DNA from: an uncultured Acidobacteriia bacterium
GTDB taxonomy: Bacteria; Acidobacteriota; Terriglobia; Bryobacterales; Bryobacteraceae
DNA length: 64,000 bases
Reading direction: 5' to 3'
NCBI GenBank assembly: GCA_903907865.1
Contig: CAIVPR010000071.1
Location: 13,410-77,409, forward strand
Each line of letters begins with the position of its first letter. The stretch's first letter is position 1. Under the pieces are notes generated by a model, which was not told where the DNA came from, made no database searches, and was given only the letters and a program-made list of their open reading frames with translations. A program made the translations under genes and the position numbers. This document shows positions 826 through 62,590 of the stretch, piece by piece.

Positions 826-835
826 AATCGGAAGT

Positions 836-1207: not shown

Positions 1208-1209
1208 CA

Positions 1210-1827
1210 ATGCCCGACCCCACGCTCCAGGAGCAGTTCGGCCAAATCGACATCTACCTCTTCGACCAGCTCCTCCGGGGACGCATCGTGCCCGGCATGC
1301 GGATTCTGGACGCGGGCTGCGGAATAGGCCGCAACCTCGTATACTTCCTGCGCGAGGGCTACGACATCTTCGGGGCGGACTTGGATCCGCAGTCCATTTC
1401 CCGAGTGCGTGCCATTGCCCGCGAGCTGGCCCCTTCGCTGCCGGAATCGAATTTCCGCCTCGAAGCAGTCGAGAACATGTCATTCGAAGACGCCTGCGCC
1501 GACGTCGTCATCAGCAGCGCGGTGCTGCACTTTGCGGCCGACGACGCGCAATTCGAGGCCATGTTGCAAGGATCATGGCGCGTCCTGAAACCCGGCGGGC
1601 TATTCTTCTGCCGGATCGCCACGACAATCGGGATGGAGGGCCAGTTCGTGCAGGTGAATGGTCGGCGGATGCGCTCGCCCGACGGTGCCGAACGCTATAT
1701 CGTGGACGAGGCGATCCTGACCAACGCAGCCGAGCGTCTAGGTGCCGAATTGGCGGACCCGCTCAAGACCACCGTGGTGCAGAATCAAAGGGCGATGTCC
1801 ACCTGGGTCCTGCGCAAGAAGATCTAG
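1210..1827 (+). CDS. class I SAM-dependent methyltransferase
   Basis: Motif I ILDAGCGIGRN and post-I acidic residue (FGADLD). Methyltransf_11-like LKPGGLFF. Confidence 0.8.
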   Translation: MPDPTLQEQFGQIDIYLFDQLLRGRIVPGMRILDAGCGIGRNLVYFLREGYDIFGADLDPQSISRVRAIARELAPSLPESNFRLEAVENMSFEDACADVVISSAVLHFAADDAQFEAMLQGSWRVLKPGGLFFCRIATTIGMEGQFVQVNGRRMRSPDGAERYIVDEAILTNAAERLGAELADPLKTTVVQNQRAMSTWVLRKKI

Positions 1828-3119: not shown

Positions 3120-3181
3120 CTGATCTGTTCCAGCTTATTCCAGGTGCCGTCGGGCCTTCCACAATGCAATAAGCTGGGAGT

Positions 3182-32074: not shown

Positions 32075-32112
32075 AGGTGATATACTCCAACGCAGGATTG
32101 AACCGTTTCAAC

Positions 32113-33840: not shown

Positions 33841-33858
33841 GAACCAAGGAGAATCGAC

Positions 33859-47038: not shown

Positions 47039-49315
47039 GTGAGAATTCTGATCCTCTCCCTCACGGCGGTCCTATCCGCCTCCGCCCTCGCCCTCGCAGC
47101 CGCGCCCCCCGCCAAGATCGACTTCGAGAAGCACGTCCAACCCCTCCTCGCCCAGAAGTGCTTCGCCTGCCACGGCGACGAGGTCCAACAGTCCGGCCTC
47201 CGCCTCGACAAGCGCCAGAACGCCATGCGCGGCGGCGACTACGGCCCCGTCATCCTCCCCGGCAAGTCCGCCGAAAGCAAGCTCATCAAGCGCGTCGTGA
47301 ACGGCGACGGCGGTATGAAGATGCCTCCCACGGGCCCCCTCACCGCCGATGAAATTGACCTCCTCAAAGCCTGGATTGACCAGGGTGCCGACTACCGCAT
47401 GGAGATCAAGCCCGAGCCCCCCTCCAAACCGGTCGACCCTCGCCTTGCGACTCTAATCTCCACCCTCCGATCCGGAGCTCTTGCCGACGCCGAGAAGATG
47501 CTCGCCGCAGACAAGACCCTCGTCAACGCCCGAGACGCCAACGGCTCCTCCGCACTCCACCACGCCGCAGCGTTCGCCAGCCTCGACGCGATGAAACTTC
47601 TGGTCGCCAACGGTGCCGACGTCCGCGCCACCAACCGCCGCAAATCCACCCCGCTGCACTGGGCCGTCCGCGACGAGGCCAAGGTCCGTTTCCTGCTCGA
47701 CCACGGTGCCCAGGTCGACGCCCGGCAGTCCGACGGCCGAACGCCGCTCTACCTCGCAGCGTCCGCCGGGAACGCCAACGCCGTCCTCCGCCTTCTGTTA
47801 GACAAGGGTGCAGACCCCAACCAGGCCACGGCCAACGGTAATACTTCACTCATCAACGCCTCCGGGCGCGGCGATGTCGAGGCTATGCGCCTGTTGATTG
47901 CTGGGACAGTGCCCGCCCGAAAGGCCGATGTCAACGCAGCCAGCGGCACCGGGGCCACCGCCCTCATGGCCGCCGCCGGGAGCCGCAATCCCCAGGCCGT
48001 CGCGCTGCTGATCGAAGCTGGCGCGAAGGTTACTGCCCGCACCAAGAAGGATGAAACCGCCCTCGCCAACGCCGCCACCTCCGGTGACGAGCAATCCGTC
48101 CAGCTCCTCCTCGACCACGGTGCCGACGTCAACGTCCGCGACGACCGCGGCTACTCCGTCCTCATGTTCGCCGCCGCCTCCGAGGTGCAGTCCCCCAAGA
48201 TCGTCAAAATGCTGTTGGCGAAGGGTGCCGACGTCAATGTGACCGGCGAGTACGAAACCCCGCGCACGCTCGCAGCCAAGCGCGGCGACACCGAAATCGC
48301 ACGGTTGCTGGGCGTTCCGGAATCCGACCGAAAGCAACTCGGAGTAGCTCCTCCGCCCGCTGCCCGCGCCAGCCAGCCCGCGATTCAGGAGGGCATTTCC
48401 AAAGGCCTGGCCCTGCTAGAAACCCAGAGCCACAACTTCATCCGCATCGCGGGCTGCAATTCCTGCCATTCGCAGGATCTCCCGTCCGCCGCCGCCGCCA
48501 TAGCCCGCGACCGTGGCATCTCGGCCCCCAAATCCATCGCGCAGCTCTCCGAGACCATGAACGGCGAGACCCCCGAGCGCATCCTCGACTATGTCGCCGC
48601 CGGTGTTTCCAGCCTCGGCTGGGAGATCTTCGACCGCGAAATGAACCACGTCCCCCACGACCTCTACACCGATTCCGTGGTCAACTTCGTGAAAGCGATG
48701 CAGACCCCTGAAGGCAACTGGCGCACCGTGTTCGGTCGCCGTGCCCCGATGAACTGGGGCGACTACCAGACCACCGCCACGGCGATCTTCACCCTCCAGA
48801 CCTCCACGCCGCCGGAGGGAAGGGCCGAAACCGCGCAGGCACTGGCCCGCGCGACCGCTTGGCTGGAGAAGTCCAAGCCGGGGAACTCCCAGGACCGCGC
48901 CTTCCAGCTTCTCGGACTCGCGTGGTCGAAGGCCGCCACGCCCGCCGCCATCGAGCAATCCGCCAAAGCCCTCGCCGCCACTCAGCAATCCGACGGCGGC
49001 TGGAAGCAGCTCGAAGGCATGGGGACGGACGCCTACGCGACCGGCCAGGCCCTCTACGCCCTCAATGTTGCGGGCAAGATGTCTGTTTCAGACCCCGTCT
49101 ACCAAAAGGGCGTCGCCTACCTGCGGACCACACAGCAGCCCGATGGCTCGTGGCACGTGAAGACCCGTTCAATCTGGATTCAGCCGTACTTCGAAAGCGG
49201 CTTCCCGCATGGCCAGGACCAGTTCATTTCGTCGGCTGGCACTGCTTGGGCCTCGATGGCGCTGTCAATGACGGTAGATGGAGGCAGTGACACCCCGAGA
49301 TTGAGCCGGAAGTAG
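47039..49315 (+). CDS. PSCyt1 (planctomycete cytochrome c) domain / ankyrin-repeat / CXXCH / prenyltransferase-squalene-cyclase-like repeat fusion protein
   Basis: GTG start and signal peptide. FEKHVQPLLAQKCFACHG...GLRLD (PSCyt1). At least 7 ankyrin-like repeats (G.S(A/P)LH.AA...VK.LL..GADVN). A second CXXCH (GCNSCHS). C-terminal QQSDGGW / QQPDGSW repeats typical of alpha/alpha-toroid terpenoid-cyclase-like folds. Confidence 0.8.
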   Translation: MRILILSLTAVLSASALALAAAPPAKIDFEKHVQPLLAQKCFACHGDEVQQSGLRLDKRQNAMRGGDYGPVILPGKSAESKLIKRVVNGDGGMKMPPTGPLTADEIDLLKAWIDQGADYRMEIKPEPPSKPVDPRLATLISTLRSGALADAEKMLAADKTLVNARDANGSSALHHAAAFASLDAMKLLVANGADVRATNRRKSTPLHWAVRDEAKVRFLLDHGAQVDARQSDGRTPLYLAASAGNANAVLRLLLDKGADPNQATANGNTSLINASGRGDVEAMRLLIAGTVPARKADVNAASGTGATALMAAAGSRNPQAVALLIEAGAKVTARTKKDETALANAATSGDEQSVQLLLDHGADVNVRDDRGYSVLMFAAASEVQSPKIVKMLLAKGADVNVTGEYETPRTLAAKRGDTEIARLLGVPESDRKQLGVAPPPAARASQPAIQEGISKGLALLETQSHNFIRIAGCNSCHSQDLPSAAAAIARDRGISAPKSIAQLSETMNGETPERILDYVAAGVSSLGWEIFDREMNHVPHDLYTDSVVNFVKAMQTPEGNWRTVFGRRAPMNWGDYQTTATAIFTLQTSTPPEGRAETAQALARATAWLEKSKPGNSQDRAFQLLGLAWSKAATPAAIEQSAKALAATQQSDGGWKQLEGMGTDAYATGQALYALNVAGKMSVSDPVYQKGVAYLRTTQQPDGSWHVKTRSIWIQPYFESGFPHGQDQFISSAGTAWASMALSMTVDGGSDTPRLSRK

Positions 49316-49666
49316 TAACCTCGCCGCGATCCAGCGCATCTCATTTCCGTTGTGGGGCAGGTTGGCAACGGTTGGCAACCTGCGGCCGGGTCGCCGACAC
49401 GGCCATGCGCCGGTAGGCGCAGGTTCCTGCCCGTATGACGAGCCAATAGGAATCCCACCGGAACTCTCGGCGGTCTACCCTTGCTTGCACCAGGCCGGGA
49501 GTATGCTATCCTGCCAACGGGTATATGCTGGGAAAGTGACGATCTTTGTGTCGATTCGTCATAATTTGGGTTGCAAGATTTCGCGATGGATGACCGCACC
49601 GGCGGTGGAGACAACGATTTGTTCCGTCAGACAACGTTCAGCAATGGCTTGGCCATGGGAGACCGC

Positions 49667-52600
49667 ATGAGAAACCGCAGTGTGAAGTTGTTGGCGTGTG
49701 TGGGTGCTGTGATCGCTCTTTCCGGCGTCGCATATGGCCAGAACGCGGCATGCACAACCCTGAATCCGAGTCCGGGCTTTCTCAGTGCCGAGGGCCAAAC
49801 GGAACTGATCCCGAGCTTCACCATCACCTGCACGGGCGGGACCACCACGGCCACCGCAAGCATCCAAATGTTCCTGTCGCCGGCGGTCCTCGTTACCAGC
49901 ACGGTCATCAATGCAACAACCGGTGCCACGGAGATCCTGGCAACTGGAACCAACGGCGTGACCGCCGTCAACGCGACGGTGTCTGGATCTGCGATTACTC
50001 TCGCCAGCGTCCAGATCCCGACCACCGGCACCACTCTCACCGTCAGCAACGTCCGGATCAATGCGACGACCATCCCCACCGTGGTCGGCGGTGCCCCATC
50101 GGCGGTCTCGATCGCCAGCTTCGTCTCCGGTAGTAGTGTTACGCCTAGCGCTATACCATCTCAAACGGTCGCTTACGTACTCAACGGCTTGGGGACCACT
50201 GCATTCTCCGGCGACATCGCAGGGGCGCAGGTTAACCTCATCAACACAGTCAACAATACGTCCGCGTCGCCCACTGCCGTCTACCGTACCGCATTCGGCG
50301 TCTGCAGCGGCCTCAACACTTCCACCTCATTCGGTGCCGTCCCGAATCTCTACGTGAAGATCACGGAGGGCGTTAGCACTGCATTCAAAACCCAGGCACA
50401 AGAAGCCAGCGGGTCGGGTGTTGACGCCGTCAACTCGGGCACCCGCTTCAAAGTCACCTTTACCAACGTTCCCGCCGGCATGAACATCTACATGCCGGTC
50501 ACCACGTTCCAAGGCACTTTCGCGATACAGACCGCGACCGCGGTTGCCCAAGTCAGCGAAACCGCGGCTACGAGTGGCACCACAAACAATCAGGTAGCGG
50601 TGACCTCGCCAGCTCAGTTCGTCTCCGGCCTGCTCGTGCAGGGAACCGGAACCACAAGTACCGGCGGCGTGTTCCAATTGCCAGTGTCCTCCGGTACGGC
50701 AACCGCGGTCTATGAAATCGTCGCCGACCAGCAGGGCGCAATCGACACCTTTAACATCCCGGTCTACCTTCAAGCGGCTCCCAACGTGGTCACGGCCCAA
50801 GCCACACCCATTGGAGCCTCAGTCAGTTTTTCACCGGTCACCGCAACGACTACCATTCCGAGCTTTGCGGTCGGCTCCTCCACCACGGTCACCCCCCTCC
50901 TTGCCTTGAACTCCTGCACCCCGGTCCTGAGTTGCACGAATCCAACCGGCTCGGGATTGGAGGCAGGTGCCCTCTTCACCAACACATGCTCTGTGGTCAG
51001 CACGACCGGCATCCCCCCGTTCTCGTTTGCGGCAACGGGCTCGTATCCAGGACTGGGCACCACCAGCAACGCCACGTCCATCACCATCAGTGGCACTCCC
51101 ACAGCCAGTACTGCCAGCTACGGCGTCCAGATTACTGACGCTGCCTCGTCCACAGCTTCGGTGTCCTTCCCCGGCACTGTTGCCTCCGCAGTTTCCGCAA
51201 CGTGTACCCCGACCGGCAATTTGAAAACCGGGTCGACATATTCCGTCACATGCACGGCCGCGAACGGTGTACCTCCTTTTGCATGGACGACAACAGGTAC
51301 CGTTCCGAGCGGTCTTGGAACGATCAGTACCTCAAATGCCACCGCCACCGCGACCATCAGTGGCATATTCACCACCGCCCAGACGGCGACCTTCCAAATC
51401 AAAGTCACCGACAGCGCCAGCACGCCGCAGAGCTCGACGGCCCCACAATCGCTAGGGGGCACTATTGTTTCCGTTCCCACATTCACCTGTACCAAGAACA
51501 CCGTTACCAACAATTCGCTGCCCGAGGAAGTGGGAGTGCTTTATGCAACGTCCTGCACCTCGACTGGTGGTAGCGGCGGCAACGTGTGGTCGATATCAGC
51601 CGGCACCAAACCCACGTGGCTCAATCAGGTCGGCACGACTGGCAACACCACGATTCTTACCGGAACGCCACCAGCGGGAACTACGCTGGCGTTCGACTAC
51701 ACCCTCCAGGTGGTCGATTCCAACAGCAACGCCGCAACCCAACGCTTTCAGGGGACCATGTTGGCGGCACCGACCGTTTCCTGCTCGCCCACAACCATTA
51801 CCGCCCCGGTGATCACCAACACCCTCTTCCCCACCCTGACCTGCGCCGTGTCCGGCGGCACCTCCCCCTACACGTTGGCCCCCTTCAAGGGTTCCATCAC
51901 TGGGACCAAAACTCTCCCCGGCGGTGTCACTCTGTCTCCCACCGCCATCCCGACCACCGCGACCACGGCCACCGTCGCGGGCACCGCGACCGACGCCATC
52001 GGAACCACCTACGGCTTCGCGATCCAGGTCACTGACTCCGCCTCCATTCCCCAGACCGCCCAGTCTGCGGCCTATACCGGCACCATCGTCTCCGCCATGA
52101 CCGCCACCTGCACGTCCACTGGAGTACTCGAGGTTGGCGCGTCCTACTCGGTCACCTGTTCCGTAACCGGCGGCACCGGCCCCTATACCTGGTCGACCAC
52201 TGGGACGATACCTGGGGGGCTCGGAGCCATCAACACTTCAACGGGCGCGATCTCCGGTACCTTTACGACCGCCCAAACCGCCAGCTTCCAGATCAAGGTG
52301 ACCGACAGCCTTAGCCAGTCGTCGACCGCCCCCACCACCCTCGGCGGCAACATCGTCGCCGGACCCTCCTTCACCTGCAGCCCGACCACCCCGCCGCAGG
52401 AGGCCACGGTGCCCTACTCCACCACTTGCACGGCGACCGGCGGCAGCGGCACCTACACCACATGGGCTGTAACCTCCGGCACCCTGCCGTCCTACCTGAC
52501 ACAGACCACTCCCACCGCGACCACCGTCAAGTTCGCAGGCACCCCGACCGCCGGCAGCGTCGATTTCACCGTCGGTCTAACCGATTCCGCCGGTATCGCG

Positions 52601-55600
52601 GCAACCACGCCCCAGCGTTTCAACGGTACCGTCAATGCTGCGCTCGCCTTCACCTGCACCAAAGGCGCGCCCCTGTCTTCCACCGTTGTCTACACCAACG
52701 TATGCACCGTCACCAGCGGCACCGGTGCCGGGACCTTCACGTGGTCGATCAGTGCCGGCAATTTGCCGACGAACGTCGCCCTTCAGTCGCCCACCAACAC
52801 CAACTCGGTCACGATTTCGGGTACGCCGGGCGCGAATGGGGCAGTGATTTTCACCCTGCAAGTCGCCGATTCGGTCGGCGGCACGGCCACCAATCGCTTC
52901 CAAGGCACCATCACCGCAGGTCCGGTCCTCACCTGCAGCAACAACAGCAATCCGGGCGAAGTGGGCGTCGCCTACTCGACCACCTGTTCGGTGACTCCGG
53001 GGACCGGTGTCTCGCCCTACTCCTTTACCCTTACTGGAACTCCGCCATCGTTCCTCAGTTCGACCACCACCGCCACCACCATCACGGTCTCGGGCACACC
53101 TAGCGCCGTTTCTGCGGCCGCAACCTACGCGGTACAGGTGTCGGACAGCACGACTCCAACCGCTGCCACTGCGAGCAAGTCCTTTACGTCAACGGTCGTT
53201 GCGACGTCGGCCTTCACCTGCACCAAGCCCACGACCTTCCGGGCCGACGTGGGCACTACCTACACCAACACCTGCACCGCGACCGCAAACACCGGCGTCG
53301 GTCCCTACACTTGGTCGATCAGCATCGGCACCCTACCTCAGGGACTGTCGCTCTCGGGCAGCACCGGCAACTCTATCACCATCTCGGGCCAGCCTTTGAT
53401 TGCCGGCCTCGCGTCTTTCACCCTCCAAATGGCGGACTCGCTCGGGTCAACGTCGACGTCAGCCTTCTCAGGAAGCGTTCAACGAGTTCCGCTTTTCACC
53501 TGCACGAACAACAACGTGCCCGCCGAAATCAGCTATCCTTACGTGTCGACCTGCACGGTCACCGGCGGTACAGGAGCGACACCTTTCACGTGGGCGATTA
53601 CCGGCACGGGTCTTCCGACCGGAGTCACGTCGACGAGCGCCGCGACCTCGATCACGCTGGCTGGTACCCCCACTGTGAGCGGCAGTGCGAGCTATACGGT
53701 CCAACTGACCGATGGTGCCGGCACGGTCGTGACCCAGCCATTTTCTGGCACCATCGGGGCGGCCCCGGCCTTCACCTGCTCAAACTCAAACGTGCCGGCC
53801 AAGGCCGGCCTCCCCTATAGCTCCGTCTGCACGATCACCACAGGCACCGGCGCTGGTCCGTTCACTTGGTCCATCAGCGCCGGAGCCCTCCCCCTCGGCG
53901 TTTCCGCGACGGTTGCCGGCACCTCGCCCGCACCGACTACGTATACTCTGAGCGGCACGCCTACCATCGCGGGGACATCGACGTACACCCTTCTCCTCAC
54001 TGATTCTTTTGGTGCCACCGCGAGCCAAGTCTTCGCAGGGACCATCGCGCCCGCAGCCTTCACTTGCGACAACTACACGCCACCCGTAGAAGCCGGACTT
54101 GCCTACTCGGTCACCTGTACGGCGAATCCCGTCGCCGGCCCTGCGCCCTACACCTTTGCAATCAGCGCCGGTTCGTTGCCTGCGGGGGTCACGTCCACAA
54201 TTACCGCCAACACGATTAAACTGGCGGCCCCGGTCTCGAGTACAGCCGCCGGAGTCGCGAATTTCACGATCCAACTCACCGATAGCGCAGCGACCCCAAA
54301 CATCACCCAGCGCTCCTTCACCGGCACTATCGCTCCGGCCCTCGCCTTCACCTGCACCAACAACAACGGCCCCACAGCCGTTGGCGCAGCTTATTCCACT
54401 ACTTGCACCGTAACCAACGGCACAGGCATCGCGCCGTATGCGTGGTCCTTCCTCCCGGGCACTGCCTTGCCACCCGGAATGACCGTCGCTGCAGGCACCT
54501 TCAGTGCTGCAGCCGGTGTCACGAGCTTTGTCATCACGGGACCCGCAAGCGCTCCCGGAACATCCAACTTCACGCTGGTCTTGACCGATTCCGCGGGTGC
54601 CACCGTCAATAGGAATTTCAACAGTACCGTTGTTCCGGCCCCCTCGTTCACCTGCACGAACTACGCACCTCCCGTCGAAGTCGGCGTGGCGTATTCGAAC
54701 ACCTGCACGGTAATCAGCGGGACCGGGACATCCCCGTACACGTTCTCCATAACGGGAGTCCCGCCTGCGGGCCTGACGCCTGTGACCAGCGCGACCGGCC
54801 TATCTATCACCAACTATCTGCCGACGCTGCCTGGACCGTTTAACTACGCGGTCACGTTGGTGGACGCCAACGGCGGTACCACCATGCAGCAGTACTCTGG
54901 TGTGATCGCGGCGGTGCCTGTCATCACCTCCCCGAACCCGCTCCCGGCGGCGACCAACGGCACGCCGTATTCCGTGCAACTTTCCGCCATTGGCGGAGTT
55001 CCTGCTGGTTATAGCTGGACTGCAACCGGCTTGCCCGCTTGGGCCACTCCGAACCCGACCACGGGATACATCACCGGTACCCCCACGTCTGCGACTCCCA
55101 CCACCGTGACGATCGGCCTGTCCGACGGCCTAAAGTCCGCGAGTTCGGTCAACTTGGTCCTGCCTGTGAACAACTACACCGGGCAGACTTGGACCCAGTT
55201 GAGCCCCGGCGGCACCCTCCCGCCAGCCAGGGGCGGCCAATCGTCCGTCTTCGATTCGGCAACCCGCCAATTGTTCGTCTTTGGTGGAACTGGTTCCACG
55301 GCCTTCCTGAACGACCTCTGGTCTTATAGCGCCACATCCAACGTGTGGACCGCTCTGAATCCCAATGGAACTGCTCCGGTAGCCCGCAGCCAGGCGTCCG
55401 CCGTCTACGACTCCGTCGCATCCAGGCTGACCCTGTTCGGCGGCCAGACTGGCCCCACCAGTTGCACCAATGACGTTTGGAGCCTTTCCAACGCGAATAG
55501 CCTCGCGGGTGCCCCCGCTTGGACCCAACTTTCCCCGACCGGGACCGCCCCCGCCGCCCGCGAGGGCCACGGAGCGGCATACGACCCCAATACCAACCGC

Positions 55601-58600
55601 ATGCTGGTCTTCGGTGGCGACAACTGCACGGGGACAAAGTTGAATGACGTCTGGGTACTAACGAATGCCAATGGCACAAGTGGAACTCCCGCTTGGATCC
55701 AGCTCGCGCCCACCGGAACAGCGCCGTCTACCCGCACCCTCTCGAGTGCGGTTTACGATTCGACGGCCAACCGCCTCGTCCTGTTCTCCGGCTCCGGGAC
55801 CTCCGTGGCCGACACCGACGTTTGGACACTCTCCAACGCCAACGGCGTCACCGGAACCCCCGCATGGACCAAGAGCACGCCCACCGGCGGCCCTCTCTAC
55901 GCCCGCCAGGCCCACACGGCCGTTCTCGACCCAGCGTCAAATAGGATGACTGTATTCGGCGGTGCGGCGGACAGCGCCGGTGGCCCAACCTCCGATACTT
56001 GGGTCCTGACCAATGCCAACGGCGGCAGCGGCGCGCAGACTTGGACACAACTGGCTCCGCTGGGGACCATTCCTCAACCAAGGTTCCTTCACTCGGCCGC
56101 CTACGACTCGGGCACCAACCAAATGATCGTCTTCGGCGGCGAATCATCGACTTCACTGTTCAACGACCTTTGGACCCTCAGCGATGCCAACGGTCTTGTC
56201 AGCATTACAAGCCTCAACCCGGCCTACTTCAGCACGGGTGGAACCGGGCTAACCCTAACCGTGACCGGACAAGGGTTCGTGCCGACCTCCGTTGTTTCCT
56301 GGAACGGCTCCGCCTTGTTGACTACTTTCGTCAGTGAAACCCAGCTCACCGCAGTCGTGCCCGCGACCGCCTTTGTCGCTGTCGGCAACGTTGCCGTCCA
56401 GGTTGTCAATCCCGGCAACAACTTTTCCCCCCTATTCAACACGATAATCGTAACCGGGTCGGGCGGTGGCGGGGGCTCGGGCGGCGGCGGTGGTGGCGGT
56501 GGTGGTGGCGTTGGTCCGCAAGGGGATGGCACCTCTGCCTCCGTTTCCCCCAACGCCTTGTCGTACTCACTGCCCGCCGGAACCGTAACCGGCAGCCAGC
56601 AGGTTGTCCTGACCTACACTTCGCCCAAACCCGATGTGCCGACCTACTCCGCCAGCGCAATCGTCCAGGCAGGGTCGGGGTGGCTTTCGATATCGCCGCC
56701 CACTGGCACCATGACCCAAACGGCCACCGATGGGTCGACCTATACTTTCCAGGCGACCACGAACGTGATCGTCGATCCAACCGGTATTGGCCCCAGTTCG
56801 ACCTACACAGGAACCGTGAACTTCCGGGCGGTCAATGCCCTCACCTCGGCTAGCGTTACCCTCACCGTCACCAATCCCCAGGTCTCGGTGCCCTTCCTGT
56901 TCTTGCCCGCCTCGCTGGGGAAAACGATTTCCAATTCCGTCGCCCCCGTGGGCGGAACCGGACCTTACGGTTGTGCCCTCACCAGCGGCAGCTTCCCGCC
57001 CGGCGTCTCACTCCATCAGGATTGCTCCATTGGCGGCACTCCTACCCAGGCCGGCAGCTTCACCGCCAACGTAACGGCAACCGACACCACGGGCATCAAG
57101 GGCCAAGGCACGGTCACCGTGTCGGTTCTTGGCATTACAACGACATTCCTGCCGCCGGTTTCCACCAACGTGGCCTACACGGCAACCGTCACTGCGGCGG
57201 GAGGCACAGCGCCGTACACGTTCACCGCTTCCAACCTTCCACTGGGCCTCTCGATGAGCGCCACCGGGACCATCTCCGGCACCGTGACGACGCTTCCGGC
57301 AACCACTCCAACCGTGCAAGTCACCGTCACGGATTCCCTAAATCTAAACAGCACCGCGACGTTCAGGCTCTCGATTACCGCCCCCGGACCGCTCACATTC
57401 GTGTCGCCGACGCTCCCCGACGCAGGCCTAGGGGTCCTCTATACCCAGAACCTGACCGCCACCGGTGGCACCCCGCCCTACCAGTGGTCGGTAACGGCTG
57501 GCACCCCGCCGAACGGCATATCGCTCAGCCCCGCCGGTATCATCTCGGGTACCCCGACAGCTGTCGGCACCTCCTCATTCACCGTCCAAGTCAAGGACAG
57601 TCTTGGTGCCACCGTCAGCGCCCCGGCAACGCTCAACGTTCGCCCGGCTGCCCTGCAACTGACCACCAAGTCGCCGCTCCCCTCCGGAGTTCTCGGCAAT
57701 GAGTACCCATCCCAGGCACTTGCGGCCAGCGGTGGAACACCGCCCTACACCTTCGCCATAACCCAGGGAAATCTCCCCGCAGGCATGACGCTTTCGAACG
57801 GCGTCATCTCGGGCACCCCGACAGCTTCCGGCGATTTCGCCATCCTCCTGTCCATCGCTGATTCCGCCAAACCGGCCACCACTGGTACCGGCGGCCTGGG
57901 TCTGAACATCCGCGCCGCCAGCACCGACCTGCAGCTCGGTTCCGGCAACGTGTCGTTCACCTTGGCCACCGGCACCGTCACATTGCCGGCACCGCAATCC
58001 GTCACCGTCAAGTCGACCAACGTGGCCCAGCCGATTTCGTACACCGTTGCGGTCAGTCCGGCCTCGCCTTGGTTGAGCGTCTCGGGCGGAGGCAACACCC
58101 CCTCGGTGCTGTCCATCGCACTCACAAGCCAGGCGGCCCAACTGGCCGCCGGCCCCTACAGTGCCGCGATCACCCTGTCTTGCGCCGCGCAGGCGGCCTG
58201 CGCAGGCAAATCGCAGTCCATCCAGGTCGCTTTGTCCGTCATCGCGCCTCCGCCGGCCCTCACTGTGGGGACCAGCATCCTTTCGCTATCCACCACACCG
58301 CCCGCCCAAGCCCAGACGGCCGACCTGACCCTCCAGAACTCCGGCGGCGGCACACTCACCGTCACATCCGCTACCTGCAACGCCTCGTGGTGCAAGGCCG
58401 GTGCGCTTCCATCTCCGATCCAAGGCGGCTCGACGGCTGCCGTCACAATTACGGCGGATCCCACCCAACTCGCGTCCGGCTTCTACCGCACCACTGTGGA
58501 CCTCGCGACTTCGGCTGGCAGCGCGTCGGTTCCGGTAACCTTCCTCGTGGCCAAGAGTTCCACCATCTCCTTGGCTCCGAGCGCCACCCAACTGTCCGTG

Positions 58601-60274
58601 CCTCAAGGGACGCTTTCCAGCAATCCTTCGGGCTCCTTCAAGATTGCCGCGCTGGGTGATGTCGTTAGCTGGAATGCATCCGTCACTGGCGGAGCGTCCT
58701 GGCTCACGGTTGCCCCCGGCTCCTCTGCCGGTGTCTCCACGCCCCAGGGTGCCGCAACCGTTACCTACACCATCAATGCGAGCACTCTGGCTCCCGGCAC
58801 CTACTACGGCCAAATCCGAATCGACGCCGCAGGTGCGACCAACGCCCCGCAGGAGTTCCAAGTCGTTCTGACCGTCAACGCCCCGGCCGACCCGGTCCGT
58901 CCAGACCCGCAACCTGCCGGCTTGCTCTTCCTGACTTCGGTGGGTGCCGGTTCACCCGCGGCCCAGACTGTCAACGTCTTCGCCAACTCGGCCAACGGTG
59001 TGCCGTACTCGGCTTCGACCGACGGCCAGGCATGGCTCTCGGTCACCACCACCACAACCACGGCCTCCGCAACCACACCGGGCCAATCCAGCGTCTCGGT
59101 CAACACGCAAGGCCTCACCGCCGGTGTCTATCGCGGTACCGTCAGCTACGCCATGTCGGCAGCGGCTGTCCGGGCCGTCAATGTGACCTTGGTGGTCGCT
59201 CCGGCTGGCGCCACCGTCAGCGGTTCAAGCACCGGAATCAGCCCCAAGGCCATAAGCACCTGCACCCCGACCCAATTGATCCAAGCCCAGACCGGCTTGG
59301 TGAACAACTTTGCCGCGACCGTCGCCCGACCCTCCTCGATCCAAGTCCGGCTCGTCAATGATTGCGGCGTCTATGTCAACAATGCCCGTGTCACGGCCGC
59401 CTTCAGCAACGGCGATCCGCTCCTCGGCCTCGTTCCGCTGGACAACACGTCCGGCACATACGCCGGCACTTGGATACCCCGCACGCCCGGTGCCCCCGCG
59501 ACGGTCGACACCCGGGCCGCCTCGGACCTACCCGCGTCGGATGCCTTCACTACCGGCTCCGTTGTCGGCAGCGCGGCCCCGTTGGTCGCTTCCGGCGGCT
59601 TGGTCAACGCCTTCGGCTCTCCGTTTGGAGCAGCCCAGGCACCCGGCTCGATTATCGCGGTCTACGGCGCGAACCTAGCAACCCAAACCGCCACGAACAC
59701 CGTCTTGCCGATCCCGACCACTTTGGGCGGCACCACTGTGATGGTCGGCGGAATCCCGGCACCGCTCTATTACGTCAGCCCCGGCCAGATCAACCTCCAA
59801 GTCCCCGTCGAACTCGATCCGTCCAAGCGCTACCAGGTCGTGGTCAACTCGAATGGGACATTGGCCGTGCCTGAGCCTGTCCAGCTGTCGGCAGTCGCCC
59901 CCAGCATCGCGGCTCTCGCCGATGGCACCATCTTGGCACAGCATAGTAGCGGTGCCTTGGTATCCCAGGCCGCACCGGGCCAGCCCGGCGAATATCTCGT
60001 CGCATACCTCCTCGGCCTCGGTGCCACGGACTTCCCGGTCGCCACCGGCGCACCCTCCCCGACATCGCCCCTCGCCCGCCCGACGGTCCAGCCAACTCTG
60101 ACCATCGGGGGCACAGCCACTACGATCTCCTTCGTCGGCCTCACCCCCGGCCTAGTCGGTCTCTACCAGATGAACTTCCAAGTGCCCGCGGGTCTCCCGA
60201 ACGGCAACCTGCCGCTCATCGTGACCCAAGGAGCGGCCTCCACTTCAGCCGTCATCCTGCCCGTCAAGAACTAA
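49667..60274 (+). CDS. giant (3,535-aa) secreted mosaic surface protein: Ig-like arrays, Kelch propeller, IPT/TIG, He_PIG, TIGR03437-type C-terminal domain
   Basis: Uninterrupted frame. Start re-picked at MRNRSVKLLACVGAVIALSGVAYGQ (ATG 49667; the track starts at 49571). Domain order read by eye; see the sub-features and findings. Confidence 0.9.
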   Translation: MRNRSVKLLACVGAVIALSGVAYGQNAACTTLNPSPGFLSAEGQTELIPSFTITCTGGTTTATASIQMFLSPAVLVTSTVINATTGATEILATGTNGVTAVNATVSGSAITLASVQIPTTGTTLTVSNVRINATTIPTVVGGAPSAVSIASFVSGSSVTPSAIPSQTVAYVLNGLGTTAFSGDIAGAQVNLINTVNNTSASPTAVYRTAFGVCSGLNTSTSFGAVPNLYVKITEGVSTAFKTQAQEASGSGVDAVNSGTRFKVTFTNVPAGMNIYMPVTTFQGTFAIQTATAVAQVSETAATSGTTNNQVAVTSPAQFVSGLLVQGTGTTSTGGVFQLPVSSGTATAVYEIVADQQGAIDTFNIPVYLQAAPNVVTAQATPIGASVSFSPVTATTTIPSFAVGSSTTVTPLLALNSCTPVLSCTNPTGSGLEAGALFTNTCSVVSTTGIPPFSFAATGSYPGLGTTSNATSITISGTPTASTASYGVQITDAASSTASVSFPGTVASAVSATCTPTGNLKTGSTYSVTCTAANGVPPFAWTTTGTVPSGLGTISTSNATATATISGIFTTAQTATFQIKVTDSASTPQSSTAPQSLGGTIVSVPTFTCTKNTVTNNSLPEEVGVLYATSCTSTGGSGGNVWSISAGTKPTWLNQVGTTGNTTILTGTPPAGTTLAFDYTLQVVDSNSNAATQRFQGTMLAAPTVSCSPTTITAPVITNTLFPTLTCAVSGGTSPYTLAPFKGSITGTKTLPGGVTLSPTAIPTTATTATVAGTATDAIGTTYGFAIQVTDSASIPQTAQSAAYTGTIVSAMTATCTSTGVLEVGASYSVTCSVTGGTGPYTWSTTGTIPGGLGAINTSTGAISGTFTTAQTASFQIKVTDSLSQSSTAPTTLGGNIVAGPSFTCSPTTPPQEATVPYSTTCTATGGSGTYTTWAVTSGTLPSYLTQTTPTATTVKFAGTPTAGSVDFTVGLTDSAGIAATTPQRFNGTVNAALAFTCTKGAPLSSTVVYTNVCTVTSGTGAGTFTWSISAGNLPTNVALQSPTNTNSVTISGTPGANGAVIFTLQVADSVGGTATNRFQGTITAGPVLTCSNNSNPGEVGVAYSTTCSVTPGTGVSPYSFTLTGTPPSFLSSTTTATTITVSGTPSAVSAAATYAVQVSDSTTPTAATASKSFTSTVVATSAFTCTKPTTFRADVGTTYTNTCTATANTGVGPYTWSISIGTLPQGLSLSGSTGNSITISGQPLIAGLASFTLQMADSLGSTSTSAFSGSVQRVPLFTCTNNNVPAEISYPYVSTCTVTGGTGATPFTWAITGTGLPTGVTSTSAATSITLAGTPTVSGSASYTVQLTDGAGTVVTQPFSGTIGAAPAFTCSNSNVPAKAGLPYSSVCTITTGTGAGPFTWSISAGALPLGVSATVAGTSPAPTTYTLSGTPTIAGTSTYTLLLTDSFGATASQVFAGTIAPAAFTCDNYTPPVEAGLAYSVTCTANPVAGPAPYTFAISAGSLPAGVTSTITANTIKLAAPVSSTAAGVANFTIQLTDSAATPNITQRSFTGTIAPALAFTCTNNNGPTAVGAAYSTTCTVTNGTGIAPYAWSFLPGTALPPGMTVAAGTFSAAAGVTSFVITGPASAPGTSNFTLVLTDSAGATVNRNFNSTVVPAPSFTCTNYAPPVEVGVAYSNTCTVISGTGTSPYTFSITGVPPAGLTPVTSATGLSITNYLPTLPGPFNYAVTLVDANGGTTMQQYSGVIAAVPVITSPNPLPAATNGTPYSVQLSAIGGVPAGYSWTATGLPAWATPNPTTGYITGTPTSATPTTVTIGLSDGLKSASSVNLVLPVNNYTGQTWTQLSPGGTLPPARGGQSSVFDSATRQLFVFGGTGSTAFLNDLWSYSATSNVWTALNPNGTAPVARSQASAVYDSVASRLTLFGGQTGPTSCTNDVWSLSNANSLAGAPAWTQLSPTGTAPAAREGHGAAYDPNTNRMLVFGGDNCTGTKLNDVWVLTNANGTSGTPAWIQLAPTGTAPSTRTLSSAVYDSTANRLVLFSGSGTSVADTDVWTLSNANGVTGTPAWTKSTPTGGPLYARQAHTAVLDPASNRMTVFGGAADSAGGPTSDTWVLTNANGGSGAQTWTQLAPLGTIPQPRFLHSAAYDSGTNQMIVFGGESSTSLFNDLWTLSDANGLVSITSLNPAYFSTGGTGLTLTVTGQGFVPTSVVSWNGSALLTTFVSETQLTAVVPATAFVAVGNVAVQVVNPGNNFSPLFNTIIVTGSGGGGGSGGGGGGGGGGVGPQGDGTSASVSPNALSYSLPAGTVTGSQQVVLTYTSPKPDVPTYSASAIVQAGSGWLSISPPTGTMTQTATDGSTYTFQATTNVIVDPTGIGPSSTYTGTVNFRAVNALTSASVTLTVTNPQVSVPFLFLPASLGKTISNSVAPVGGTGPYGCALTSGSFPPGVSLHQDCSIGGTPTQAGSFTANVTATDTTGIKGQGTVTVSVLGITTTFLPPVSTNVAYTATVTAAGGTAPYTFTASNLPLGLSMSATGTISGTVTTLPATTPTVQVTVTDSLNLNSTATFRLSITAPGPLTFVSPTLPDAGLGVLYTQNLTATGGTPPYQWSVTAGTPPNGISLSPAGIISGTPTAVGTSSFTVQVKDSLGATVSAPATLNVRPAALQLTTKSPLPSGVLGNEYPSQALAASGGTPPYTFAITQGNLPAGMTLSNGVISGTPTASGDFAILLSIADSAKPATTGTGGLGLNIRAASTDLQLGSGNVSFTLATGTVTLPAPQSVTVKSTNVAQPISYTVAVSPASPWLSVSGGGNTPSVLSIALTSQAAQLAAGPYSAAITLSCAAQAACAGKSQSIQVALSVIAPPPALTVGTSILSLSTTPPAQAQTADLTLQNSGGGTLTVTSATCNASWCKAGALPSPIQGGSTAAVTITADPTQLASGFYRTTVDLATSAGSASVPVTFLVAKSSTISLAPSATQLSVPQGTLSSNPSGSFKIAALGDVVSWNASVTGGASWLTVAPGSSAGVSTPQGAATVTYTINASTLAPGTYYGQIRIDAAGATNAPQEFQVVLTVNAPADPVRPDPQPAGLLFLTSVGAGSPAAQTVNVFANSANGVPYSASTDGQAWLSVTTTTTTASATTPGQSSVSVNTQGLTAGVYRGTVSYAMSAAAVRAVNVTLVVAPAGATVSGSSTGISPKAISTCTPTQLIQAQTGLVNNFAATVARPSSIQVRLVNDCGVYVNNARVTAAFSNGDPLLGLVPLDNTSGTYAGTWIPRTPGAPATVDTRAASDLPASDAFTTGSVVGSAAPLVASGGLVNAFGSPFGAAQAPGSIIAVYGANLATQTATNTVLPIPTTLGGTTVMVGGIPAPLYYVSPGQINLQVPVELDPSKRYQVVVNSNGTLAVPEPVQLSAVAPSIAALADGTILAQHSSGALVSQAAPGQPGEYLVAYLLGLGATDFPVATGAPSPTSPLARPTVQPTLTIGGTATTISFVGLTPGLVGLYQMNFQVPAGLPNGNLPLIVTQGAASTSAVILPVKN
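50925..54915 (+). repeat. 14 tandem ~95-codon Cys-pair Ig-like (He_PIG-related) coding repeats inside the giant gene
   Basis: Each unit has: (F/L/A)(T/S)C(T/S)...15-21 aa...(T/S)C(T/S)(V/A)..G(T/S)G..P(Y/F)(T/S)(W/F)...LP.G(L/V)...(I/V)(S/T)GTP...F(T)(L/I)Q(V/L)(T/A)DS...F.GT(I/V). Units are diverged at the DNA level. Confidence 0.8.
55171..56195 (+). other. six Kelch-like beta-propeller blades inside the giant gene
   Basis: Six repeats of W(T/I)(Q/A)L.P.G..P..R..(H/A/S).A(V/A)YD...N(R/Q)(L/M).(V/L)FGG......(N/T)D(L/V/T)W(S/V/T)L(S/T). Confidence 0.75.
56455..56515 (+). repeat. poly-glycine linker coding tract (GSGGGGGSGGGGGGGGGGVG)
   Basis: Run of GGC/GGT/GGG codons between the IPT/TIG-like domain and the next Ig-like module. 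Confidence 0.9.
59573..60271 (+). other. TIGR03437-type (Solibacter uncharacterized C-terminal) domain of the giant protein
   Basis: GGLVNAFG...APGSIIAVYGANL...LGGTTVMVGGIPAPLYYVSPGQINLQVP...PGEYLVAYLLGLG...GLTPGLVGLYQMNFQVPAGLPNGNLPLIV matches my memory of that family's conserved blocks. Confidence 0.7.
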
Positions 60275-60282
60275 CCGCAACT

Positions 60283-61740
60283 ATGAAGGCTCTAGCGCTT
60301 CTAGTAGCCTGCAACCTGCTCGCCGCCGACATCCCCCGAACCTGGGAGAAGTCGGCGGTCGAGTCCCTGGAACTTCCCCTCGCCAACCCGGCCTACTCCC
60401 CCGTCCACCTCGACGAGGCCGCCTACTACCGCATTCCCGAACGCGTCATCTACAAGACCTACCCCGTCTACGCCCCCGGCCGCGCCCCCGCCAACTACGA
60501 GGAATCTCTCAAGACCCTCGACCCCCAAATCGCCTTCGACCCCGCCCGCCTCTCGTCCGGCCAGGACTGGATCGCCGCCGGCGAAATCGTCTTCAACTGG
60601 CCCACCTCCCTGCACCCCATGTTCTTCACCCCGCAGGATCTCCGCGACCCCGACTTCATCCGCCGCACCGGCATGCCCGTCGCCAAGGACGGCACCATCC
60701 CCTTCGCCCGCTGGGTCGTCCGCAAGAAGGGTGTCGTCGAGCTCGGCTCGATGGGCTGCAACACCTGCCACACCCGAGTTCTCCCCGACGGCACCGTCGT
60801 CCCCGGAGCTCAGGGCAGCAACCCCAACGACCGCCAAGGTGCCCTCCTCCTACGTGCCACCGCCAAGGCCATCGGTGCCGACAAGGTCGCCGCCCAGGTT
60901 CGAGGTTTCGCCCGCCAGTTCGAACTCCCTTGGGTCCCCAACGACTTCAACCGCCTCACAGCCACCATGGACCTCGACACCTTCGTCGCCGCCGGTGCAG
61001 CCATCCCCCCCGGCGTCACCGCACGAGCCAACACCAGCATGCTCCTGCCCCCGCAGATTCCCGATCTCATCGGAGTCCGGGACCGCCGCTACCTCGACCA
61101 CACCGGCCTCATCCGCCATCGCAACATCGGCGACCTGATGCGCTACAGCTCCCTCGCTCAGGATCTATTCACCGCCGACCGCTACGGCACCGCGGCCACC
61201 GGCGAAAGCCCTGCGGCTTCCAGACCCGCGACGCGCTACAGCGACGCCCAGCTCTACGCCCTCGCGCAATACCTCTACTCCCTGAAGCCCCCGGCCAATC
61301 CCAACCCCTACGACGCCGCTGCCGCCCGAGGTAAAACAGTCTTTGAAGCCGAAAAATGCGGTAACTGCCACACGGCCCCGCTGTACACGAACAACAAACT
61401 CGCCCCGGTGGACGGTTTTCAATCTCCCCCCGGCACCCCGGACGTCCTCCAAGCCCGCCTCGGCCTCGACCCCCGCTACGCCCTAGATTCCCGAAAAGGC
61501 ACAGGCTACTACAAGGTGCCGTCCCTGAAGGGCGTCTGGTATCGCGGACCCCTCGGCCACAACGGCTCCGCCGCTACACTCGAAGATTGGCTGGATCCCG
61601 CCCGTCTCGACCCCGCCTACATCCCGACCGGCTTCAAAGGCCACGACGGCCAAACTCGCACCATCCCCGGCCATCCGTTCGGCCTAACCCTACCTCCGCC
61701 CGCCCGCCGCGACCTAATCGCCTACCTCCGCACACTGTAG
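60283..61740 (+). CDS. secreted di-haem c-type cytochrome-like protein, unknown function
   Basis: Signal peptide MKALALLVACNLLAADI. Two CXXCH motifs (GCNTCHT, CGNCHT) about 210 residues apart. The start is 8 nt after the giant gene's TAA. Confidence 0.7.
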   Translation: MKALALLVACNLLAADIPRTWEKSAVESLELPLANPAYSPVHLDEAAYYRIPERVIYKTYPVYAPGRAPANYEESLKTLDPQIAFDPARLSSGQDWIAAGEIVFNWPTSLHPMFFTPQDLRDPDFIRRTGMPVAKDGTIPFARWVVRKKGVVELGSMGCNTCHTRVLPDGTVVPGAQGSNPNDRQGALLLRATAKAIGADKVAAQVRGFARQFELPWVPNDFNRLTATMDLDTFVAAGAAIPPGVTARANTSMLLPPQIPDLIGVRDRRYLDHTGLIRHRNIGDLMRYSSLAQDLFTADRYGTAATGESPAASRPATRYSDAQLYALAQYLYSLKPPANPNPYDAAAARGKTVFEAEKCGNCHTAPLYTNNKLAPVDGFQSPPGTPDVLQARLGLDPRYALDSRKGTGYYKVPSLKGVWYRGPLGHNGSAATLEDWLDPARLDPAYIPTGFKGHDGQTRTIPGHPFGLTLPPPARRDLIAYLRTL

Positions 61741-61879
61741 CTAACCGCCGAGCCGGCCGAAAATCGACTCTCCACCAAATCCGGTCACAAACTATATTTC
61801 CATCCGAATCAGCAACTTCCGCCACCTCAAGTTCGGAATCCACCCCCGTCCGTGCTAAACCAGACACGGAGCAACTCCC

Positions 61880-62590
61880 ATGTCGACACCAAAACAAATC
61901 GCCGCAAACCGCACCAACGCCCGGAAATCCACAGGCCCGAAGTCCGCTGCGGGGAAGCAGACCGTCTCTGTCAACGCCCTACGCCACGGCCTAACAGGAC
62001 GCACGGTCGTCCTCCCAGCCGACGACCTCGACCTCTACAAAACCCACGTCAAAACCCTTACCGCCTCCCTGAAACCCGAAACCCCGGAGGAGACCCAGCT
62101 CGCGGCTCTCATCGCCGACAACTACTGGCGACTCCAGCGCATCCAGTCCATCGAGGATGGCATCTTCGCCCTCCAATATGCCGACGACGAAACTCTCGCC
62201 ACCCACCCCCAAGCCAACACCACGCTCAACCAACCCAAGGCCTACCTGAACCACGCCAAGGAACTCGAGCGCCTCACCCTCTACGAATCCCGCATCCATC
62301 GCAACATCAAATCCGCGACAGCCCGCCTCGAAACACTCCAATCCGACCGCCGCGCCGCCCGTGCGGCCGCCCTCGAACAAGCCAAACTCCTGTTCCGCCT
62401 CCACGCCGGCTCGAAGCGGCAGGACTCCGAAGTCCGAATGCCGGACTTACCCTCCCTGCACTCACCGCAGACCGATACCCCTGGCCACGGCTTTGAATTT
62501 TCATCCACCGAACTCACCCACGCCATCCAGCTCGAAGACCAACTCCACCAAGCCAGAAAACTCCGCCCAGTGCTGGCCAAAGCCGCCTAG
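61880..62590 (+). CDS. conserved hypothetical protein (N-terminal ANRxNAxKSTGPKSxxGK...NALRHGL motif)
   Basis: ATG preceded by GGAG. 236 aa with a basic N-terminus and a helical remainder. I recall this N-terminal motif in many uncharacterised Acidobacteria/Planctomycetes proteins. Confidence 0.6.
   Translation: MSTPKQIAANRTNARKSTGPKSAAGKQTVSVNALRHGLTGRTVVLPADDLDLYKTHVKTLTASLKPETPEETQLAALIADNYWRLQRIQSIEDGIFALQYADDETLATHPQANTTLNQPKAYLNHAKELERLTLYESRIHRNIKSATARLETLQSDRRAARAAALEQAKLLFRLHAGSKRQDSEVRMPDLPSLHSPQTDTPGHGFEFSSTELTHAIQLEDQLHQARKLRPVLAKAA

Follow-up and report, generated by a model that had tools for sequence, protein, structure and literature searches.

A giant Ig-like and Kelch mosaic protein from an uncultured Bryobacteraceae bacterium and its membership of a two-ended protein family

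The DNA analysed in this work (hereafter the window) is a 64,000-nucleotide stretch of the genome of an uncultured soil or lake bacterium of the Bryobacteraceae (Acidobacteriota; GenBank assembly GCA_903907865.1, contig CAIVPR010000071.1). At positions 49667-60274 of its plus strand it carries a giant gene of 3,535 codons, whose product (the window protein) combines immunoglobulin-like (Ig-like) modules with a Kelch propeller. Sequence comparisons place this protein in a two-ended family of the Bryobacterales, with an N-terminal domain absent from Pfam (the N-domain) at one end, a TIGR03437 domain at the other, and a variable spacer and cargo in between, the members ranging from about 735 to about 5,300 residues. 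Both traits of the family are found in the window protein, namely a signal peptide followed by an N-domain of about 390 residues, and a TIGR03437 end separated from it by Ig-like modules. The protein is probably an extracellular or cell-surface fibre with a role in adhesion or matrix formation. It is uncharacterised, but not unique in its architecture. Taken singly it is unsurprising; such giant mosaics of Ig repeats are widespread among bacteria.

The first of the two ends, the N-domain, occupies residues 25-417 (49739..50917, plus strand). A search with residues 1-420 retrieved 36 homologous proteins of 364-630 residues, with 28-50% identity and essentially full coverage of the query, and no Pfam match was found among them. 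Homologues at 100% coverage show 30-53% identity. Homology begins with the signal peptide and goes no further than Cys417, and Q25, C213, P398, F400 and C417 are invariant. The original prediction, made from the sequence and its translated reading frames, had found no family to name for a Thr/Ser/Ala-rich N-terminal region of about 420 residues; the region indeed matches nothing in Pfam or NCBIfam, but it corresponds to a folded domain with homologues. The AlphaFold model is all-beta (predicted local distance difference test, pLDDT, 86; predicted template modelling score, pTM, 0.81) and displays tandem beta-sandwiches. Integrin legs, a cohesin dyad, MSCRAMM, Als and CupB6 adhesin domains and shaft pilins are among its fold matches in the PDB, all at a template modelling (TM) score of 0.35 or less and of a generic multi-Ig kind, and no sequence relative was found there.

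The N-domain is also present in secreted proteins of about 570 residues devoid of Pfam matches, in proteins of about 735 residues which end in TIGR03437, and in two giant relatives, P0371 and P0293. A local hidden Markov model (HMM) of the domain scores 4.5e-125 on the window protein and about 5e-64 on these two giants. Beyond Cys417 the proteins of about 570 residues continue into a domain of about 150 residues, designated smallC (CxTxLLFPFV...GFETGIAISNT...QCNFQYAHGFAYI), where the window protein continues into an array of He_PIG modules. The smallC HMM gave no match in the window protein or in the rest of the window, and the protein is not a member of this N-domain+smallC family. The N-domain and smallC are two domain families absent from Pfam, NCBIfam and the PDB. 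The window N-domain is 49-51% identical to those of the small-family proteins P0001 and P0003, which originate from metagenome-assembled genomes (MAGs) of lake Acidobacteriia, 29-31% identical to those of P0371 and P0293, and 25-27% identical to that of the 735-residue type. The C-terminal two-thirds of the protein, on the other hand, have their nearest relative in P0295 (41%). Because the two parts have different nearest relatives, a mosaic origin by module shuffling would fit.

The opposite end consists of a conserved pre-domain and the TIGR03437 (Soli_cterm) domain (59537..60271, plus strand). The model match covers residues 3313-3534 (nucleotides 59603-60268) and positions 2-225 of the 225 in the model, with 192.2 bits against a cutoff of 29.05 (E 1e-56), and stops one residue short of the last residue of the protein. 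The predicted structure of this domain (pLDDT 91.6) is made of tandem IPT-like beta-sandwiches, and its best fold matches are the plexin and MET IPT domains, Bacteroides SGBP-B (TMq 0.37) and the tandem Ig domains of titin; the surface-layer (S-layer) protein SbsC is also among the matches. No sequence relative of the domain was found in the PDB. Homologues of the domain numbered 384. The best 120 of these 384 are proteins or fragments of at most 422 residues, mostly labelled "uncharacterized protein (TIGR03437 family)" or "IPT/TIG domain-containing protein [Bryobacteraceae]". Relatives of both end domains are found in MAGs of Bryobacterales, Bryobacteraceae, Solibacteraceae or Terriglobia. 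In the proteins collected here, 133 of 136 TIGR03437 copies have their last residue no more than 15 residues from the C-terminus, and the three non-terminal copies are located in P0318, P0295 and P0350.

The modules located between the two ends were identified by Pfam and NCBIfam scans of the entire protein and of ten segments taken separately. Scanning by segments proved necessary for TIGR03437, which was missed by the NCBIfam scan of the entire 3,535-residue protein because the composition-bias filter of HMMER acts on a long, Thr/Ser/Ala-rich query. The N-domain HMM failed to match P0371 and P0293 until the --nobias option was set, and the modules of all relatives were read using local HMMs built for each window module with the bias filter off. 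The five kinds of domain expected in the original prediction (He_PIG, Kelch, TIG, BACON-like and TIGR03437) were all recovered, and no catalytic family was detected in the protein or its segments.

Downstream of the N-domain, fourteen tandem modules (residues 420-1755; 50924..54931, plus strand) each contain a conserved Cys pair 16-22 residues apart, the first at 423/441 and the last at 1663/1680. The number of modules and the Cys pairs agree with the original reading, which had called them Ig-like; they are He_PIG modules (PF05345), nine stretches of which pass the threshold. A fifteenth He_PIG module, in this case without the Cys pair, follows at residues 1756-1830 (54932..55156, plus strand; 5.6e-10). 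Over its multiple copies, namely the fourteen-module array, the fifteenth module and four later ones, PF05345 reaches 100.8 bits against a cutoff of 24. The Cys pair, present in 14 of the 19 He_PIG modules of the window protein, is a rare variant: both Cys are present in only 5 of the 3,298 He_PIG modules of the 150 nearest giants, three of the five being in P0360.

The six-blade Kelch beta-propeller extends over residues 1831-2175 (55157..56191, plus strand) and is defined by PF24681 (3.5e-61; 206.7 bits against a cutoff of 50), six Kelch_3 stretches and six F(G/S)G motifs. Its three His occupy one consensus position (R..H.A.YD), each in a different blade, and for this reason look structural rather than catalytic, as compared with Kelch enzymes of the galactose oxidase type. 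The propeller is followed by an IPT/TIG domain (PF01833, 2.9e-11; residues 2176-2262; 56192..56452, plus strand). The closest relatives of this Kelch-TIG segment are double-Kelch proteins of about 700 residues from Acidobacteriota, which are uninformative with respect to the architecture. After a Gly/Ser linker of twenty residues (residues 2264-2283; 56456..56515, plus strand) comes a BACON-like beta-sandwich (residues 2285-2425, core 2302-2403; 56519..56941, plus strand), which an iterative local HMM supports at 2.8e-12, Pfam BACON_2 remaining below threshold (E 0.079); the module is kept in P0295. Four canonical He_PIG modules (residues 2426-2800; 56942..58066, plus strand; four stretches, 4.8e-35) mark the start of a C-terminal cassette. 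They are followed by a BACON-like/Ig-like array (residues 2801-3290; 58067..59536, plus strand; BACON_2 1.9e-13, three stretches), in which the iterative HMM delimits four clear modules at about 2790-2860, 2880-2963, 2981-3073 and 3088-3180, and probably a fifth is present. From the He_PIG module without Cys through the propeller, the TIG domain, the linker and the two groups of BACON-like modules to TIGR03437, the inventory is that of the original prediction.

In order to situate this architecture, residues 1651-2850 were compared with 1.84 billion cluster representatives in an exhaustive phmmer search, which produced 71,934 matches at E <=1e-3. Architectures were read for the best 150 of these, all He_PIG-rich proteins of 830-7,400 residues. 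P0371, an uncharacterised metagenomic giant of 3,540 residues, aligns with the window protein from end to end (28-3537 with 26-3532) at 32% identity. It displays the N-domain, He_PIG arrays, the four He_PIG modules, the BACON-like array and TIGR03437, and P0293 (5,293 residues) follows the same plan. Both begin, as does the window protein, with a signal peptide and then the N-domain, and neither has a Kelch propeller. Their He_PIG modules are devoid of the Cys pair, unlike those of the window protein; in addition, the place of Kelch-TIG is taken in P0371 by Laminin_G_3 and other inserts, and the gene neighbourhoods of these giants are different. P0295 (2,671 residues, uncharacterised) follows residues 873-3533 of the window protein colinearly, with 41% identity, and contains, in order, He_PIG, Kelch, TIG, the Gly linker, a BACON-like module, the four He_PIG modules, the BACON-like array and TIGR03437. 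It differs from the window protein by the presence of TIG repeats and an internal TIGR03437-like copy 5' of the propeller, in place of the Cys-pair He_PIG array. On the contig of P0295 (L083:1-480) the frame coding for He_PIG extends upstream of the called start to a stop codon; this is probably a disrupted gene or a misassembly, with an N-terminus that is probably truncated.

The C-terminal cassette of about 1,100 residues (He_PIG x4, BACON-like array, TIGR03437) is shared by the window protein and eight representatives. In addition to P0293, P0371 and P0295 these are P0318 (5,058 residues), P0360 (2,601) and P0422 (2,196), which combine it with Kelch, and P0285 (3,550) and P0372 (5,981), which have no Kelch. 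From these alignments the cassette appears to be conserved and the middle variable. Among the 151 proteins formed by the window protein and the best 150 of the 71,934 matches, the window protein is the only one to possess both the N-domain and the propeller. No close orthologue was found in a metagenome scan using residues 1750-2430, which returned Kelch matches only, at 33-35% identity.

These relatives modify several claims of the original prediction. The domain order, which had been presented as undescribed, is not as singular as proposed, with P0371 aligning from end to end, P0295 colinear from He_PIG through Kelch to the C-terminus, and at least six more proteins sharing the cassette. The propeller had been seen as embedded between two different Ig arrays; the arrays are not of different kinds, because the fourteen modules of the first are He_PIG like those of the later one. 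The further suggestion of a ligand-binding head held on a stalk is weak: the propeller is located mid-chain (residues 1831-2175 of 3,535) and, since P0371 and P0293 lack it while keeping the same ends and cassette order, it is better described as an optional insert than as a defining head. The claim that no characterised protein has this combination of domains stood up to scrutiny, both ends being without sequence relatives in the PDB and no relevant literature having been found. Full-text literature searches aimed at the family (TIGR03437; He_PIG or Kelch in Acidobacteria; excreted proteins of Acidobacteria or Solibacter usitatus) produced nothing directly relevant, and the Solibacter genome paper contains no discussion of TIGR03437-type or giant proteins.

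The two ends are also associated at the level of gene order. One genome per bacterial or archaeal species (GTDB) was scanned using smallC-domain patterns, a procedure whose reach does not extend to giant fusions, and the N-domain+smallC family was confirmed at 102 places. Eighty of these loci were fetched (L002-L081, for instance L040:4553-13883 and L003:5598-11743), nearly all from MAGs of Bryobacterales, Bryobacteraceae, Solibacteraceae or Terriglobia. A same-strand gene encoding a protein of about 760 or about 1,200 residues, with three to four Big_1 domains and TIGR03437, lies downstream in 42 loci; when only loci having more than 4 kb of downstream flank are considered, a downstream TIGR03437 neighbour is present in 39 of 63. 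Upstream, 27 loci contain a same-strand gene for a protein of about 1,300-1,500 residues with LGFP, Big_1 and TIGR03437, the Big_1 of these flanking proteins being an invasin/intimin-type domain. The division and cell wall (dcw) cluster, mraZ-rsmH-ftsL-ftsI-murE-murF, is found directly 3' of the small-family cluster in 17 loci. In 13 loci a secretin is encoded upstream of the N-domain/TIGR03437 cluster, and that of L003:6-2438 has a C-terminal cohesin domain; the secretin is possibly a dedicated outer-membrane route for these proteins. Seven loci (L012:6957-9164, which was checked directly, L009, L014, L019, L042, L053 and L058) contain the protein of about 735 residues, composed of the N-domain, BACON_2 and TIGR03437. 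Its two ends are those of the window protein, but the middle of about 2,700 residues is missing, and its gene is located just upstream of the N-domain+smallC gene.

The N-domain and TIGR03437 are thus linked twice, since they are fused within proteins and adjacent as genes. A bolder reading would make them the two working ends of an undescribed surface-fibre system of the Bryobacterales. Most genomes supply the two from separate adjacent genes (N-domain+smallC beside the Big_1/LGFP TIGR03437 genes), and the window protein, P0371, P0293 and the proteins of about 735 residues would be Rosetta-stone fusions, from which it would follow that the modules act together. The fibre might be attached through one end to the cell or to an export route that depends on a secretin, and the other end might polymerise or bind its target; Ig spacers of any length, and cargo such as Kelch or LamG, would be tolerated in between. 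We regard this reading as speculative and rather doubtful.

The gene itself is a single open reading frame (ORF) of 3,535 codons from ATG 49667, with no internal stop, ending at the TAA at 60272..60274 (plus strand). Its continuity from a signal-peptide-like start to this stop codon, part of the original prediction, is borne out by the sequence and by the alignment of homologues. Two further in-frame starts, TTG 49571 and ATG 49586, are located 5' of ATG 49667, and the public gene call on the 79-kb ENA/NCBI contig uses ATG 49586, which yields 3,562 residues. ATG 49667 was preferred because a Shine-Dalgarno-like GGGAG (49657..49661, plus strand) precedes it by 5 nucleotides, because the resulting product begins MRNRSVKLLACVGAVIALSGVAYG|Q and because this N-terminus matches the signal peptides of homologues; ATG 49586 has no Shine-Dalgarno-like motif upstream. 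From ATG 49667 the N-terminus aligns position by position with the signal peptides of 34 homologues, in which Gln25 is invariant. The signal peptide delimited by this alignment comprises residues 1-24 (MRNRSVKLLACVGAVIALSGVAYG; 49667..49738, plus strand), and cleavage is expected before Gln25. It is the only hydrophobic segment of the signal or membrane-anchor type, an equally hydrophobic stretch from residue 2229 falling within the TIG domain. An exact look-up of the 3,535-residue form returned no gene on record, and the 3,562-residue form is not in the protein collection searched. The 3,535-residue protein is rich in Thr (17%), Ala (12.5%), Ser (11%) and Gly (11%) and contains 43 Cys and 5 His; the mature form is acidic (pI about 4.8), with a mass of 346 kDa. 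In the 350-nucleotide intergenic region 5' of the gene, a sigma-70-like promoter match, GTGACG-18-CATAAT (49536..49565, plus strand), rests on consensus matching only (1 found against 0.2 expected). The same region contains a perfect 10-nucleotide tandem direct repeat, GGTTGGCAAC GGTTGGCAAC, at 49360-49379, which could be a regulator binding site.

Export most likely proceeds through the Sec pathway, as suggested by the signal peptide, and a number of other routes were considered. A lipobox at Cys11 (LLAC) was rejected, being situated 3 residues into the hydrophobic core and not conserved in homologues. No PEP-CTERM or LPXTG sorting signal was identified: the PEP tripeptide occurs once, at residue 3402, without a following hydrophobic segment, and the C-terminus ...AVILPVKN belongs to an Ig domain. 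The type IX cargo domain Por_Secre_tail (PF18962 / TIGR04183) gave no match, the C-terminus being occupied by TIGR03437, and no barrel translocator of type V (autotransporter or intimin-invasin) was detected in the Pfam scans of the protein and its ten segments. The features of type I RTX adhesins are missing as well, with a Sec-type signal peptide present and no GGxGxD motif.

The reading that we favour, a fibre outside the cell or on its surface with a part in adhesion or matrix formation, derives from the domain content, which is purely Ig-like/beta-sandwich and Kelch, from the confident modelling of both ends as beta-sandwich tandems, and from the adhesin tip domains, pilins, cohesins, plexin IPT and SGBP-B among their generic fold matches. 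It also draws on the intact ORF with its signal peptide, the lack of any catalytic family in the scans, the recurrence of both ends and of the cassette in other proteins with or without Kelch, the TIGR03437 genes beside N-domain genes with their surface-type LGFP and Big_1 domains, the nearly constant terminal position of TIGR03437, and the role proposed by Ward et al. 2009 (as cited in PMC5009118) for large excreted proteins. The protein would form a chain of beads comprising about 35 beta-sandwich domains and one six-blade Kelch propeller mid-chain, for which we infer a length on the order of 130 nm (about 35 domains of roughly 4 nm each). Its end modules would attach it and bind partners, the arrays of He_PIG and BACON-like modules would serve as spacers, and the propeller would be an optional additional binding module. 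The Cys pairs of the first fourteen He_PIG modules probably form intradomain disulfides, which would stiffen this stretch outside the cytoplasm.

A number of observations weigh against the fibre. The motif search of the window protein found no RTX/GGxGxD, LPXTG or PEP-CTERM motif; no second hydrophobic segment of the signal or anchor type and no lipobox in a valid position are present; and the Pfam scans of the whole protein and of its ten segments found neither a beta-barrel nor a C-terminal domain of type IX. Since no recognised signal for outer-membrane export or anchoring could be identified, the protein could remain periplasmic. The fold matches are generic, with TM scores of 0.37 or less and root-mean-square deviations of 7-20 Å. 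TIGR03437 is unlikely to be a pure C-terminal sorting tag, because three of its copies are non-terminal. The genes beside the giant gene of the window do not recur beside those of P0371 or P0295, and part of the synteny of the small family may reflect a vertically inherited core locus beside the dcw cluster, which does not necessarily imply a functional coupling.

Several other explanations share part of this evidence. The protein could be a structural component of the envelope, similar to an S-layer, rather than a ligand-specific adhesin, its N-domain and TIGR03437 polymerising, or docking with the co-encoded N-domain+smallC protein and with the TIGR03437 proteins that carry Big_1 and LGFP, to build a housekeeping surface layer or fibre. 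The conserved same-strand cluster formed by the N-domain+smallC gene and its TIGR03437 neighbours, directly 5' of the dcw genes in 17 genomes, points in this direction, as do the LGFP repeats of the upstream partner, for which Pfam gives a putative role in cell-wall anchoring, and the presence of SbsC among the fold matches of the C-terminal domain. The giant gene is nevertheless located outside the small-family locus, next to genes for cytochrome-c-domain proteins; few giant relatives with both end domains were found, and the middle region varies between relatives in a manner unusual for a lattice-forming protein. We consider such a component unlikely. The capture of polysaccharides for nutrition, in which glycans of plant or microbial origin would be bound by the Kelch propeller and the BACON-like modules and kept close to the cell until separate enzymes degrade them, is consistent with the BACON_2 modules, with the cohesin dyad among the N-domain fold matches and with the match of the C-terminal domain to SGBP-B, a surface glycan-binding protein of Bacteroides (TMq 0.37). 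This role is made improbable by the nature of the modules, Kelch propellers being generic interaction modules and BACON domains having proved, in at least one characterised case, to be spacers and not binders, and by the genes adjoining the giant gene in the window, which include no carbohydrate-active enzyme, SusC/D-like or TonB-dependent transporter gene. A periplasmic protein never reaching the surface, such as an envelope-spanning spacer, would account for a Sec signal peptide accompanied by no recognisable signal for outer-membrane translocation or anchoring. A chain of about 35 domains, with the length estimated above, would however far exceed the width of the periplasm, and the secretin encoded ahead of the small-family genes in 13 loci suggests that related proteins may leave by a dedicated route through the outer membrane; the paired Cys do not discriminate, disulfides forming equally well in the periplasm and outside. 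On balance a purely periplasmic location seems very improbable.

The giant ORF might, finally, be an assembly artefact or a decaying pseudogene, in which collapsed or chimeric repeats have kept a common frame by chance. Its source is a MAG, an independent short-read assembly breaks at the Gly-codon repeat, and the relative P0295 appears disrupted upstream of its called start. Against this, domain matches follow one another in a single frame throughout 10.6 kb, and the protein aligns from end to end with P0371, which originates from an unrelated metagenome. The fourteen N-terminal repeat modules are diverged (mean pairwise identity 37%, maximum 66%), and the sole DNA tandem repeat of the gene is a run of 33 nucleotides of Gly codons at 56483-56515. 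The independent Logan assembly of run ERR4195047 shows no mismatch over window positions 56480-61880, which makes the 3' 3.8 kb of the gene identical in both assemblies, and an identical product of 3,562 residues is called on five contigs. With diverged modules and no DNA repeat beyond the Gly run, the collapse of repeats was ruled out as an explanation, and from the whole of this evidence either a collapse or a chance ORF is very unlikely. Neither the collapsed repeats nor the internal stops that the original prediction had named as grounds for abandoning it were found by the analysis of module identity and DNA repeats or in the independent short-read assembly. The Logan contig (L001) starts at window position 56480, within the Gly-codon run, where short-read assemblers break; for this reason the length of the run is the only doubtful point of the assembly, and the true length of the linker may differ. 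An artefact or a pseudogene is, in our estimation, extremely improbable.

Among known systems, the giant type I adhesins LapA, SiiE and MpIBP resemble the window protein by a long Ig-like extender with binding modules embedded in it or terminal, and by an acidic composition, poor in Cys outside particular modules. Unlike them, the window protein has a Sec signal and is devoid of RTX repeats and of a type I C-terminal signal. Its gene also differs from type I adhesin loci in that no genes for an ATP-binding cassette (ABC) transporter, a membrane fusion protein (MFP) or TolC adjoin it, the resistance-nodulation-division (RND)/HlyD genes at 36.3-41 kb being an AcrB-type efflux pair. The curated but functionally uncharacterised paralogous family of TIGR03437 proteins (Candidatus Solibacter usitatus and other Bryobacterales) has the same terminal domain. 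Most of the TIGR03437 proteins retrieved are of 200-1,750 residues and few have the N-domain; the window protein adds to this plan the fourteen Cys-pair He_PIG modules and the Kelch propeller. PMC5009118, citing Ward et al. 2009, attributes to the large excreted proteins of Acidobacteria a proposed part in biofilm formation, desiccation resistance and soil structure. These "high-molecular-weight excreted proteins", described there in soil Acidobacteria including Solibacter, are large and secreted like the window protein, and form a class loosely defined from three genomes (PMC5009118).

Acidobacteria of the Bryobacterales/Solibacter type are abundant in soils, peat and lakes, and their cell-surface biology has been little tested experimentally. 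Their genomes encode many TIGR03437 proteins of no known role, and the giant gene is a clear example of how these are built, with two conserved end modules, a freely expandable Ig/He_PIG/BACON middle and optional binding inserts. The link between the N-domain and TIGR03437, by fusion and by neighbourhood, is the most interesting by-product of the analysis and leads to a testable hypothesis of a surface-fibre system which, if true, could bear on how cells aggregate and attach to particles, and on soil structure.

The window as a whole is ordinary chromosome, with genes for FtsK, aspartokinase, IlvD, UDP-glucose dehydrogenase, a Ser/Thr kinase, the RND efflux pair and Wzt. The 3' neighbour of the giant gene (60283-61740, plus strand) starts 9 nucleotides after its stop codon and is probably co-transcribed with it. 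It encodes a protein of 485 residues resembling cytochrome c and di-haem peroxidases (MauG/MbnH/RoxA-like, weak matches). This di-haem cytochrome gene was considered as a dedicated partner and rejected, the loci of P0371 and P0295 having unrelated neighbours, and the flanking genes were not counted as part of the feature because they are not conserved at these two loci. The 5' neighbour (47039-49315, plus strand) encodes 758 residues with PSCyt1 (planctomycete-type cytochrome c), about seven ankyrin repeats and a C-terminal region similar to squalene-hopene cyclase, an unusual fusion. Large overlapping ORFs occupy both strands at 32077-35418 (587 residues, plus; 737 residues, minus; 519 residues, plus), two of which were tested and gave no Pfam match. 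Just past the end of the window, the public contig carries a PSCyt1-PSCyt2-LamG-PSD1 gene.

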